Positions 27,848 through 36,148 of a stretch of DNA of 64,000 nucleotides are shown piece after piece. The notes beneath the pieces are model-generated. The model was not told the DNA's origin and did no database searches. It saw nothing but the letters and a program-made list of their open reading frames with translations. The first letter of the stretch is position 1; each line of letters starts with the position of its first letter. The position numbers and the translations under genes are program-made. The stretch is from a virus (Duplodnaviria; Heunggongvirae; Uroviricota; Caudoviricetes). Where the stretch lies: IMG/VR virus record IMGVR_UViG_3300047323_000678. One strand, 5' to 3'.

Positions 27848-27907
27848 TTGGACTTAAGCATGTTTTATTCAGCAAGTTGGATGCTTAGGTGAACTATACA
27901 ACTGCTG
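27848..27907 (+). ncRNA. 60-nt repeated structured RNA motif, copy A
   Basis: TTGGACTTAAGCAT...CAGCAAGTTGG.TGCTTAGGT...CAACTGCTG; homologs at 31671 and 36089. Confidence 0.7.
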
Positions 27908-27956
27908 TTTTAAATTAGTATAAATTTGCTTTTAATCTATTTTTTAAGGAAAAATT

Positions 27957-28232
27957 ATGCAAAACCAAAATGTTGAGTCTGCAAATAATGTCCGCAAACT
28001 TTTCACCTCAGATCTTGATTCTGTAGAACGCAAGGCTGTTCAAGAAATTGAAAATAAACTAGGTAAAAAAATTGGTGAAGTGTCAGAGCAACAGGTTTTG
28101 GATAGTTTGAATTCGCTATTTCCTTATAATGAACTAGGTGGAAGTGAAGGAAGATACAAAGAATTCGTCGCAGATTTAAAACGAGCCTACTCTGAAGTCA
28201 AATCTGGAAAAATCCGCACTAGCAATTTTTAA
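27957..28232 (+). CDS. Hypothetical protein
   Basis: 91 aa, AAGGA RBS. Confidence 0.65.
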   Translation: MQNQNVESANNVRKLFTSDLDSVERKAVQEIENKLGKKIGEVSEQQVLDSLNSLFPYNELGGSEGRYKEFVADLKRAYSEVKSGKIRTSNF

Positions 28233-28252
28233 GTTATCAAGTTAAGAAAAAT

Positions 28253-28711
28253 ATGAAACTTAATCAATTCCAACAAGCAGAAGTAAATCATCACAATGAT
28301 GCAGAATTGCTTTGGCTTATTCAGTCAAAAATTGAAGCTTTTCAAAATGATGAGAAAAACTTCAAAGATGGGAAGTTTAATACTTTTTTATTCTGTAAAG
28401 AAGTTGGGATTGTAGTTGCAAAAGCTATTGCTGAGCGAGAAGGTTTCCATGATAAATATCATCAGTTAACTGAAAAAGAGACTGCTGATTGTTTATGGAA
28501 GAGTTACACCGAAAAATTCCCAAAATCTAATGAAGCAAGTTTCAAATCTTGGGAAGAGCTTATTTGCCCACTTTTGGATAATCTAATTTATCAATCTCTA
28601 CTGAGAACTAGGGTACCTTTACAAGAAACTAGTCTGATTGATAATTATTGGCCATTTAACCAAGAAGGTGGTTTTTGTAACCCCAACAAACTTAATATGA
28701 TAGAAGATTAA
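28253..28711 (+). CDS. Hypothetical protein
   Basis: 152-aa ORF. Confidence 0.65.
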   Translation: MKLNQFQQAEVNHHNDAELLWLIQSKIEAFQNDEKNFKDGKFNTFLFCKEVGIVVAKAIAEREGFHDKYHQLTEKETADCLWKSYTEKFPKSNEASFKSWEELICPLLDNLIYQSLLRTRVPLQETSLIDNYWPFNQEGGFCNPNKLNMIED

Positions 28712-28726
28712 TTAAAGGAAGATATA

Positions 28727-29098
28727 GTGATTAATGTAAAAATTCAGCTTAGCAATGATGTTTTTAATCTTGTAGATGATAATGGAAATATTGTATTTTC
28801 TAATGCAAATTGGGGTTTGGTTAAAGATTTTGCTTATGGCAAATTTAATATTCAATATGAGCCAAAAGATTTGATCTTTGATATAGGTGAAGATGAGGAT
28901 GAGGGCCCATATGTATATTTTGATATCAAATACGGTAGTAGTGATGGTAATCTAGATGATCACAATGTAATTAATTTACCAAGCTTTATGTATGGGGCAT
29001 TGATGGAATGCACTTTTGGTTATAAGGAATCAATGTCCAAAAAAAAGGTTATTGAAGGTTTGGTTGCAGCAGGTGCTAGTTATAAGCAAATTATTTGA
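28727..29098 (+). CDS. Hypothetical protein, paralog of 27075..27422
   Basis: AAGGA RBS, GTG start; clear alignment with the upstream paralog. Confidence 0.7.
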   Translation: MINVKIQLSNDVFNLVDDNGNIVFSNANWGLVKDFAYGKFNIQYEPKDLIFDIGEDEDEGPYVYFDIKYGSSDGNLDDHNVINLPSFMYGALMECTFGYKESMSKKKVIEGLVAAGASYKQII

Positions 29099-29175
29099 TT
29101 AAGAAAATATTGCTTGACAAATTTTTGACAACAACTTAATCTATCTACATCAATTAAATTTACTACTTATTAAAC

Positions 29176-29253
29176 ATGCGTAATTTTTCAACTACTACTA
29201 CCACAACAACAACAACTAGCTTAAAAAGCTGGGTGGTGGCATTTTATTGTTGA
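29176..29253 (+). CDS. Thr-rich leader peptide (thrL-like)
   Basis: MRNFSTTTTTTTTTSLKSWVVAFYC with nine consecutive Thr codons, directly upstream of a terminator and thrS. Confidence 0.85.
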   Translation: MRNFSTTTTTTTTTSLKSWVVAFYC

Positions 29254-29319
29254 AAAATAAATAATTAGTAAATAACAATAGAATTTTATCAAAGCCTGGC
29301 TGAAAAGTCAGGCTTTTTT
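29216..29319 (+). promoter_or_regulatory. Transcription attenuator (1:2, 2:3, 3:4 hairpins)
   Basis: 1:2 CTAGCTT/AAGCTGG; 2:3 AGCTGGGT(29227)/GCCTGGCT(29294); 3:4 GCCTGGCT-GAAA-AGTCAGGC plus T6. Confidence 0.8.
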
Positions 29320-29364
29320 GTTTTTATATTTCAATTAATCAAATTAACTTTAAAGGAAAAGAAA

Positions 29365-33859: not shown

Positions 33860-33922
33860 TTGAACTATTGCTTTATTTTAACTTTTAACTTATATTATCT
33901 GCATAATTTATATATTCAAATA

Positions 33923-35605
33923 ATGCCGAATAAGTCTAGCAATAATAATTTAGTTGATGAGAAGAAAAAGTTAAAAACTTTTTCTATTCATGAAACTGAT
34001 TTATCTATGGTTAAATTTATCAAAAATTATTTATTTAAATATAAACATTTAGAGAATATTCTTAATTTATTGCTCAGAGAACAGTTTGAACTTAATCAAT
34101 CTTTATCTGATTATGCTTTGACCGAAGGTAAGAAAGCCTTTAGTTTATTATTTAATGAAAAAGCTATGAAAGCCGTTTTGGTAGGCAATGCTGGTGGCAT
34201 TGCTACCAAAGAGAATATTTCTTTTATCAATAACTATTTCCAAAACAATCATTTATTTATTCAGGCTAAAATAGTATCTAAACCATTAAATGATAAAAAT
34301 ATTTCTATGGTTGTTCGTAGAATCAAAAAAGATTGGTCTAATTATTTTTCTGCTTTAACTCAATATAAATCTAATCCCTCTACTTTTAAAGGTAAGCCTA
34401 GTTATCCTAAATCTAAAAAACTATCTAAAGTTTTTAATTATTCTTTACCTTTAGAAAAAGATAAATGGTCTTTAAAAAGAAAGAAACAAAATCTTTTAGG
34501 CATCAATCTAGGCAAAAAAATGTTTGATGTTTATATTGGTAAAACTGAATATTTCAAAGATAAATTAGTAAATAATGTTACCGTGAGCTACTCTCATGGT
34601 CATATTTATTATAATTTTACTTATTCTAGTGAAAATCAAGGTTTACCTAATAAAGATAAAGAGTTTATTTTACCCAAAGATAAAGTAAGAAAAGAAGCTG
34701 GTGGTGATGTAGGTTTGAATAATTTACTATCTTTATTCATTAATGATGAAACTACACAATCATTAATTTTTTCAGGCAAAGAAGTCATTAGTTATAACTG
34801 CAATTTTAATAAAAGATTAGCCGAAATTAACACATTGATTTCTTATGAAGTTAAGACTTATAAAACTATTTCTGATAAAAATGGAGTTATTAGACAAGTT
34901 CCTGAATCTTACACAAATAAAGGTAAGAGATTAATTAAAACAAAAAGTCAATTATTTGAGAGAAGAAGGCTATTCTTTTATGATTACATGAATAAATTAA
35001 GCAAAAAGGTTGTTGAATACTTATCAAATAATAATGTAATAGATTTAGTTTTATCTAAGAATTTAAGCTTTACCAAGAATGATGGTAGTATAGAAATGCA
35101 GAAGAAAACAAAGCAGAAATTTTACCAAATACCATTTGGTAATATGTTGAATTTAATTTCAAGTAGAGCAGAAGAAAAATCAATCAATGTGGTATGGATA
35201 GATGAAGCATATACAAGTAAAACAAGCAGTATTAGTGCAGAAGTAGTAGAAGTGCAGAAATTAGCATCAATAGATAGAAATAAAATAGTTCCTACAGATT
35301 TAAATGGTAATCGTGGAGCGAAGAAAAAAGGTATTTTAAATAATAAATTAGGAAGAGGTTTATTCAAAGATAGTGTGATAAACAAGGTAATAAATGCTGA
35401 TATAAATGCAGCATGCAATCATATTAAAGTAGCATTTAAATATGTTGATAAAAATTACCTATCAAAGTATAGCTTGCATAAATGGTGTAATCCAATAAAG
35501 ATAAAAAGTAATCACGAGTTTGATATTTTACTGAAGAATTTTAGTAAAAAACAAATAGTAGATATACATTTAGGTAAGGAAATTTACCTGAAATCCGTAG
35601 TATAA
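33923..35605 (+). CDS. tnpB: IS607-associated TnpB-like RuvC protein
   Basis: GGDVGLNN, LVLSKN, QIPF, DEAYTSKTS, NADINAACN; follows the IS607 tnpA remnant; no Cys Zn finger. Confidence 0.85.
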   Translation: MPNKSSNNNLVDEKKKLKTFSIHETDLSMVKFIKNYLFKYKHLENILNLLLREQFELNQSLSDYALTEGKKAFSLLFNEKAMKAVLVGNAGGIATKENISFINNYFQNNHLFIQAKIVSKPLNDKNISMVVRRIKKDWSNYFSALTQYKSNPSTFKGKPSYPKSKKLSKVFNYSLPLEKDKWSLKRKKQNLLGINLGKKMFDVYIGKTEYFKDKLVNNVTVSYSHGHIYYNFTYSSENQGLPNKDKEFILPKDKVRKEAGGDVGLNNLLSLFINDETTQSLIFSGKEVISYNCNFNKRLAEINTLISYEVKTYKTISDKNGVIRQVPESYTNKGKRLIKTKSQLFERRRLFFYDYMNKLSKKVVEYLSNNNVIDLVLSKNLSFTKNDGSIEMQKKTKQKFYQIPFGNMLNLISSRAEEKSINVVWIDEAYTSKTSSISAEVVEVQKLASIDRNKIVPTDLNGNRGAKKKGILNNKLGRGLFKDSVINKVINADINAACNHIKVAFKYVDKNYLSKYSLHKWCNPIKIKSNHEFDILLKNFSKKQIVDIHLGKEIYLKSVV

Positions 35606-35810
35606 TTGAATCATTATTATTCTTAGTTTTCTAGCTTTGAATAGATTTTACTTGGCTTTATTTAACGGAGGTTTATCATATTATTAGTGAAAACAATGGA
35701 TATGTTAAATATGTTCTGAGCTATGAATTTGAAGGTCAGAAAAGGGAGCGAGAGGATAGTAGTAAGGCTAAATTTCTGAGTTGCGGCTACCACAGTTTTA
35801 AGCAGATAAA
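35606..35810 (+). ncRNA. Possible omega-RNA / right end of the IS607 element
   Basis: Non-coding, locally GC-enriched stretch right after tnpB with GTAGT/GCTAC stem; boundary not resolved. Confidence 0.3.
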
Positions 35811-35847
35811 ATAAGTATGAAAAAAATTTAAAAATGTTTTAAAAAAG

Positions 35848-35876
35848 TTGTACATTTTTGGATTTTTAGGTATAAT
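35848..35876 (+). promoter_or_regulatory. Promoter of the second tRNA operon
   Basis: TTGTAC-17-TATAAT. Confidence 0.8.
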
Positions 35877-35911
35877 AGATTCATTAGTTAAGCAGTAAAT
35901 GATTTAAAAAT

Positions 35912-35990
35912 GCTTCGTAGTTTAGTCGGAAAACGCCCGTGTACCGAAAGAGAGGGGCACCCAATGTTAAAGCCCATTGGCGAAGCACCA
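35912..35990 (+). ncRNA. tRNA-shaped RNA with aberrant anticodon arm and T-loop
   Basis: GCTTCGT/GCGAAGC-A-CCA acceptor, GTTT/AAAC D stem, GCCC/GGGC stem with 16-nt loop, CAATG/CATTG stem with TTAAAGCC loop. Confidence 0.65.
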
Positions 35991-36003
35991 AGTAGTAAAT
36001 AAT

Positions 36004-36080
36004 CGGAGTGTAGCGCAGCCCGGTAGCGCATCTGGTTTGGGACCAGAGGGTCCAAGGTTCGAATCCTTGTACTCCGACCA
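36004..36080 (+). tRNA. tRNA-Pro(UGG)
   Basis: CGGAGTG/TACTCCG acceptor, TCTGG-TTTGGGA-CCAGA anticodon arm, CCA end. Confidence 0.95.
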
Positions 36081-36088
36081 TAGAATAA

Positions 36089-36148
36089 TTGGACTTAAGT
36101 GATTTTTAGCCAGCAAGTTGGGCGCTTAGGTAAAATAAACAACTGCTG
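36089..36148 (+). ncRNA. 60-nt repeated structured RNA motif, copy C
   Basis: Between tRNA-Pro and the CUA tRNA; compensatory A-T to G-C change in the main stem. Confidence 0.7.

Follow-up and report, generated by a model that had tools for sequence, protein, structure and literature searches.

The window analysed here, a 64,000-nt stretch of DNA, is part of a ~2.2-Mb contig of 25-33% GC from an uncultured bacterium in a rhizosphere metagenome. It carries three copies (A, B and C) of a short conserved block, referred to below as the motif, which are embedded among tRNAs, tRNA-like and other RNA-like units and small open reading frames (ORFs), downstream of promoter-like sites (Table 1). Comparison of these copies with versions from related genomes makes the motif a credible new RNA family, of narrow distribution, as judged from sequence conservation and pairing.

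Copies, borders and relatives of the motif

The initial annotation had listed three copies, each of exactly 60 nt, starting at 27848, 31671 and 36089. Three copies are indeed present, but the conserved block measures 62 nt and starts 2 nt earlier; its borders are sharp in A, B and C, and there are no differences in length. A degenerate pattern search of the window returned exactly three matches, compared with 0.32 expected by chance, and a covariance model of the motif, run with filters off, scored the copies at 88-92 bits and the next-best segment of the window at 15 bits. The copies are spaced 3.8 kb (A-B) and 4.4 kb (B-C) apart; as they differ pairwise at 6-11 positions, they are not recent duplicates.

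Table 1. Positions of the motif copies and of neighbouring features in the window
Feature	Position	Strand	Remarks
Motif copy A	27846-27907	+	Covariance model 90.6 bits; starts 6 nt past the CCA end of the tRNA-like RNA; ends 50 nt before ORF 27957-28232
Motif copy B	31669-31730	+	Covariance model 91.9 bits; first structured unit past the promoter at 31600; two tandem 110-nt RNAs downstream
Motif copy C	36087-36148	+	Covariance model 88.1 bits; starts 6 nt past tRNA-Pro; ends 4 nt before tRNA(CUA)
Promoter-like TGTACA-N17-TATAAT, heading the mixed operon of copy A	27436-27464	+	Consensus match only
tRNA-like RNA 1, directly upstream of copy A	27742-27839	+	Ends in CCACCA; 94% identical to the head unit of the copy E operon (L054/L055)
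Promoter-like site, copy B operon	31600-31627	+	Consensus
Tandem pair of 110-nt RNA-like units, following copy B	31750-31958	+	Conserved in L052 and L055
Promoter-like site, copy C operon	35849-35876	+	Consensus
tRNA-Pro(UGG), upstream of copy C	36004-36080	+	
tRNA with CUA anticodon (amber suppressor type)	36153-36226	+	4 nt downstream of copy C; same arrangement in L054/L055
Intrinsic terminator-like hairpin, closing the copy C operon	36235-36264	+	

Two further versions from related uncultured genomes bring the number of distinct motif sequences to five. Version D was found by a metagenome pattern scan on a related 1.1-kb contig (L052), and version E, reached via neighbouring proteins, is common to three 20-kb loci (L054, L055 and L062) on related contigs of 0.6-2.0 Mb. 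Identity of the relatives to the window is ~77-88% in those genes close to the motif that align best (21075-22783, ThrRS and YaaA) and 83-90% in the motif itself. Homology with the relatives begins and ends at the motif borders, and the flanks are unrelated. Across the five sequences, 44 of the 62 columns are invariant, 18 are variable and no insertions or deletions occur.

Exact and gapped patterns run against viral contigs gave coding or chance matches only and no motif copy, and pattern searches with two of its neighbours, the 110-nt RNA and the tRNA-like RNA, brought up no relatives in viruses. Nine chance matches and no motif copy were obtained from a pattern search of species-representative genomes, and BLAST against phage and plasmid records matched only the tRNA-Pro. 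Searches through the neighbouring genes gave the following: a 72-aa neighbour ORF has no relatives apart from itself, relatives reached via a 58-aa ORF have no motif, and more distant relatives, whose YaaA is 76% or 58% identical, lack the motif in the vicinity of yaaA; in a relative with YaaA at 67% identity, the contig stops 16 nt past yaaA. A literature search with the motif's invariant words retrieved primers only. Throughout these collections, the motif is seen in one narrow uncultured lineage only.

The motif had been called novel, and this description holds. With Rfam 15, the window gives no match to the motif at gathering score; at E<=10, positions 27500-36500 yield nothing besides tRNAs and noise, and 83-85-nt slices around copies A and C yield zero matches. 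In addition, the substitutions preserve pairing, and they do so on the + strand only.

Predicted fold and strand

Variation is distributed unevenly over the predicted structure: 12 of the 25 predicted unpaired columns are variable, as are 5 of the 18 columns of the outer stem, P1, and none of the 19 columns of the loop and 3' tail. Column 24, one of the variable columns, contributes to the outer pair of an inner hairpin, P2; it would be unpaired if the loop and tail pair with each other, and is hence also counted among the 12. P1 is a 9-bp stem in which every change keeps the pairing, namely one compensatory pair and three wobble-type changes. As proposed at the outset, a U.G pair becomes U-A in copy B and an A-U pair becomes G-C (compensatory) in copy C, where a C-G pair is also replaced by U.G. 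When P1 and P2 are considered together, every position forms a standard pair in all five sequences, with one compensatory pair and four one-sided wobble changes. Sliding the 3' partner columns by 1-3 positions lowers pairing to 11-51%, and RNAalifold recovers P1 plus P2 without being given the stems. Each G.U pair would turn into a C-A mismatch on the opposite strand, which identifies the + strand as the one that folds; judged from the operon layout, it is also the strand predicted to be transcribed in all five contexts.

Two folds are conceivable for the loop region. One is the 4-bp hairpin P2, (C/U)CAG/UUGG, which corresponds to the inner CCAG/TTGG hairpin of the initial annotation and is the hairpin independently predicted by RNAalifold. 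The other joins the invariant 11-nt loop, CAGCAAGTTG, to the invariant 10-nt tail, CAACTGCTG: as had been suggested, the two are complementary, forming nine Watson-Crick pairs around one bulged A. The energy of this duplex (-9.1 kcal/mol) is close to that of P1 alone, and shuffled loops and tails attain it in only 0.6-1.8% of trials. Pairing of loop and tail across the 8-nt A-rich linker would give an H-type pseudoknot, which is probably favoured over the 4-bp hairpin. A structure of P1 plus pseudoknot, as originally proposed, fits the distribution of variation, but the pseudoknot itself receives no support from covariation because both its strands are invariant.

Coding functions were rejected on both strands. 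The only + strand frame with a shared stop is interrupted by a UGA in copy C, and start codons are missing from all copies. Read from the - strand, copy A contains a stop, and the variation lies at second codon positions.

The motif could also act at the level of DNA, as a site of recombination, a cassette junction or a binding site by which the boundaries between the modules of a mosaic island are marked. The borders of the motif are precisely where synteny with the relatives ends, and the surrounding modules are reshuffled; the genome employs other stereotyped repeated parts such as promoters and terminators; and a 9-nt direct repeat, TTTTAAATT, brackets copy A (27841-27849 and 27908-27916), its upstream unit overlapping the motif's first four bases. 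However, the pair-preserving changes are of the G.U type and keep the pairing on the + strand only; they therefore fit RNA or single-stranded DNA, but not a site bound as a duplex. Terminal inverted repeats are missing, copies C and E have no flanking repeat, no recombinase adjoins the copies and TnpB is not consistently linked to them. Taken together, a DNA-level element is unlikely. The direct repeat at copy A, to which a weaker flanking repeat at copy D (AAAATTG) can be added, may be due to chance in AT-rich DNA or may be a trace of module insertion.

Known classes of mobile elements were rejected as well. An IS200/IS605 end or a TnpB omega RNA does not account for the motif: TnpB at 12683-13975 has no copy nearby, and copy E has no TnpB in its 20-kb locus. 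Copy C lies 480 nt from a second TnpB (33860-35605), with a promoter and two RNA genes in between. Integron attC sites are characterized by terminal RYYYAAC ... GTTRRRY cores, an adjacent integrase and an arrayed arrangement after each cassette. In the motif, GTTGGRY is located in the middle and not at the 3' end, an inverse core is missing from the 5' end, and the three copies are spread across ~20 small ORFs.

Operon contexts

All five copies are located downstream of a TGTACA-N16/17-TATAAT promoter and upstream of the operon terminator. The motif had been placed always inside non-coding RNA operons and away from protein genes, which does not apply to two of the contexts. Copy A resides in a mixed operon, where the promoter-like site is followed by ORF 27512-27730, the tRNA-like RNA, the motif and, 50 nt further downstream, ORF 27957-28232; copy D, with a protein ORF on either side, is preceded by an orthologue of ORF 27512-27730. 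The operon of copy E comprises, in this order, a promoter, a leader, tRNA-like RNA 1, a ~126-nt stretch, the motif, a tRNA with CUA anticodon and a terminator. The ~126-nt stretch (11912-12036 in L054/L055) is absent from the window and may represent a further RNA module. The 110-nt RNAs that follow copy B are also present in L052 and L055, there without the motif upstream; in L055, a different tRNA-like or hairpin RNA (9157-9260) heads the operon at the place that copy B takes in the window. Going by this comparison, one head unit of the 110-nt RNA operons can apparently take the place of another.

In copies C and E, exactly 4 nt separate the end of the motif from the 5' end of tRNA(CUA), and copies A and C start 6 nt past a CCA end; given these fixed spacings, the motif behaves like a transferable unit that has no promoter itself. 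A position between tRNA-type genes is found for C, on the 3' side for E and by half for A (tRNA-like RNA upstream, ORF downstream), and not for B and D.

In two species-level lineages, the CUA-anticodon tRNA has retained its place in the operon (12103-12176 in L054/L055). The motif, tRNA(CUA) and terminator of the window and of L054/L055 together align at just 73%, the tRNA being strongly diverged. Two sequence joints touch this region. A contig joint in run X1, the probable source sample, connects 36082 to 36232 at a depth near that of the main genome: the 3' end of tRNA-Pro meets the terminator region, skipping copy C and tRNA(CUA), which could reflect a second tRNA-Pro locus or a strain variant. 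A read joint in run X2 connects 36150 to 36236; weak as it is (depth 6, side 35), it suggests a third relative, in which the motif is directly followed by the terminator, without tRNA(CUA).

The motif might be imagined as a structured 5' leader that gates the maturation of tRNA(CUA): placed 4 nt from the RNase P site, a compact fold would delay the release of a suppressor tRNA, or make it conditional, in a genome still using TAG as a stop. Copies C and E, from two species-level lineages, keep the exact 4-nt spacing though the tRNAs have diverged, and, according to one report, pre-tRNAs with 5' extensions of at least 8 nt are poorly aminoacylated, i.e. long extensions impair charging (PMC7049720). 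Nevertheless, three of the five versions (A, B and D) have no tRNA downstream, folding of the precursors shows no conserved leader-tRNA pairing (z ~0), and the relative seemingly present in run X2, weak evidence as noted, would hold the motif without tRNA(CUA). Such a gating function is distinctly unlikely.

The motif could instead be a free trans-acting small RNA or a protein-binding decoy, released from the transcripts, with loop and tail serving as single-stranded recognition sites for a target that might even reside in a presumed eukaryotic host; the joint in run X2 is weak evidence in this direction. The loop and tail blocks are its most constrained part, and tRNA processing sites bracket it in C and E. 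Yet a search for complementary targets in the window and the neighbouring RNAs revealed none scoring above shuffles, no candidate binding protein co-occurs (the flanking ORFs belong to no known family), and the mutual complementarity of loop and tail is better explained by intramolecular pairing. A trans-acting role is therefore rather unlikely, though less so than a DNA-level element.

Other parts of the operons are recurrent, too. Promoters of the TGTACA-N16/17-TATAAT type are found at 22617, 23518, 27436, 31600, 32228, 35849 and 57427; in RNA operons, the promoter is followed by a shared leader, AGCTTCAT ... AAG(C/T)A(G)TAAA, and the leader of tRNA-array operons can form a small CTTCAT/ATGAAG hairpin. 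A stereotyped terminator hairpin (GCAGATCAGAAATGGTCTGC plus a T run) occurs ten times in the window with <=3 mismatches, always on the + strand (17506, 36238, 36810, 41955, 42974, 44391, 53177, 55324, 56542 and 57857), and in some variants the changes in the stem are compensated (GATC/GGTC to GATT/AGTC). It seems that the genome reuses standard regulatory parts. In the initial annotation, the leader AGCAGT was thought to pair with ACTGCT of the motif. The leader is present at 31640 and 35891, but it is common to RNA-operon promoters, among them two of tRNA arrays (22617 and 23518) that lack the motif; its sequence in the copy E operon is AGUAGU, and the hexamer occurs >30 times in the window. 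Pairing of the leader with the motif tail is therefore not motif-specific.

Possible functions

Our tentative preference, for which the odds remain below even, is that the motif is a structured RNA punctuation module: a selectively maintained new family that would be processed from, or would cap, polycistronic transcripts and thereby protect or insulate its neighbours. The motif could act in the following manner. As an internal segment of polycistronic RNAs that are made from the + strand, it would fold into P1 and the loop-tail pseudoknot, adopting a compact H-type structure. Between tRNA-type units, trimming of the upstream tRNA end and an RNase P cut at the downstream one would release a fragment of ~70 nt; in polycistronic tRNA transcripts, units are separated by RNase P, according to one report (PMC7049720). 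Elsewhere, the motif would stay in place and cap a processed RNA end with its structure. In both situations, the fold, being compact, would withstand nucleases and keep the folding or decay of one neighbouring RNA from affecting another. A processing or nuclease-blocking element was among the functions proposed originally, and it is the one that we favour, by inference from the position of the copies.

Several points weigh against this interpretation. Just five distinct sequences are available, all from a single narrow lineage, and the control for covariation is weak, since 90 of 500 shuffles do equally well. Single-sequence folding energies are no better than those of shuffles (z -1.4 to +0.8). 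The strands of the pseudoknot never vary, and their conservation could equally reflect a binding site for a protein or for an RNA in trans. Moreover, the positions are heterogeneous (before a tRNA, before non-coding RNAs and before protein ORFs), and no single processing scheme covers all five. Finally, modularity alone is nothing special in an island that is, in its entirety, a mosaic of reshuffled modules.

The closest parallels to a punctuation module come from tRNA operons. The tRNA cluster of phage T4 gives rise to stable "species 1 and 2" RNAs. Like these and like the spacer-derived RNAs of tRNA operons, the motif lies between tRNA-type units without a promoter of its own, and its release by the tRNA-maturing enzymes is expected (C and E, partly A). 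Spacer-derived RNAs include 3'ETS-leuZ of E. coli, internal spacers and Ile-tRF-5X (PMC9514646). Unlike them, the motif is far more conserved and structured, has no sequence relation to them and is found also between protein genes (A and D) and, in the case of B, as the first unit of an operon of RNAs other than tRNAs; moreover, its release is only predicted here.

More speculatively, the motif could represent a new class of compact RNAs that are catalytic or stop nucleases, acting as a self-cleaving ribozyme or as a pseudoknot resistant to exonucleases; the bacterium, presumed to be host-associated, would employ it as a standard part for both cutting and capping the units of its unusual operons, which combine tRNAs, tRNA mimics and a suppressor tRNA. 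We regard this as quite improbable. The narrower assumption, of a small self-cleaving ribozyme of a new kind whose cuts separate the modules of polycistronic RNA, is very unlikely. Size, fixed length, ~21 invariant core nucleotides, the likely pseudoknot and the position between modules resemble small ribozyme classes, and the lack of a match to any known family would be compatible with a new one. However, the Rfam scans gave no match to known models (pistol, twister, twister-sister, hatchet, hammerhead and HDV-like), and most conserved small motifs are not ribozymes. The pistol, twister, hatchet, hammerhead and HDV models are presumably all contained in Rfam.

The initial annotation had also considered an antitoxin mimic. 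Type III antitoxin RNAs, i.e. ToxI, CptI and TenpI, are known together with a phage mimic, pseudo-ToxI; they are built as a tandem array of ~34-45-nt repeats next to the gene of an endoribonuclease toxin. A type III antitoxin or ToxI-like mimic that blocks such a toxin shares with the motif its small size and possible pseudoknot, and nothing else. The motif occurs as single copies 3.8-4.4 kb apart, Tandem Repeats Finder detects no array at any copy, and the flanking ORFs have no Pfam or PADLOC match to ToxN/AbiQ/CptN/TenpN or to another toxin or defence family. With neither a tandem array, nor an Rfam match, nor a ToxN/AbiE-type or other defence gene next to any copy, this proposal is extremely unlikely and was abandoned.

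Two further groups of structured RNAs are similar in part. As in cis-regulators with an H-type pseudoknot, namely the preQ1-I/II, SAM-II, fluoride and guanidine-III riboswitches, which measure 40-60 nt, the hairpin loop of the motif would pair with the 3' tail across an A-rich linker; unlike them, it has no Rfam match, and just two of the five copies precede an ORF, the downstream genes being unrelated. The putL and putR RNAs of HK022 mediate processive antitermination in a phage. They share with the motif the occurrence of several co-oriented, conserved and structured RNAs of ~60-70 nt downstream of strong promoters in a phage-like gene island. Unlike putL and putR, copies C and E lie just before the last gene and the terminator, where antitermination would be purposeless, and there is no match in sequence or model.

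If both the fold and the excision proposed for the punctuation module hold true, the motif would constitute a new family of bacterial RNAs. The RNA island, besides its tRNA mimics, extra tRNAs, amber-suppressor tRNA and attenuator-controlled aminoacyl-tRNA synthetases, would then also hold a compact pseudoknot module. The narrow uncultured lineage restricts the practical weight of the motif; a small natural module for insulation or processing would nonetheless be useful as a tool. For the biology of such islands, it could reveal how their long untranslated transcripts are processed, or how a suppressor tRNA is kept in check.

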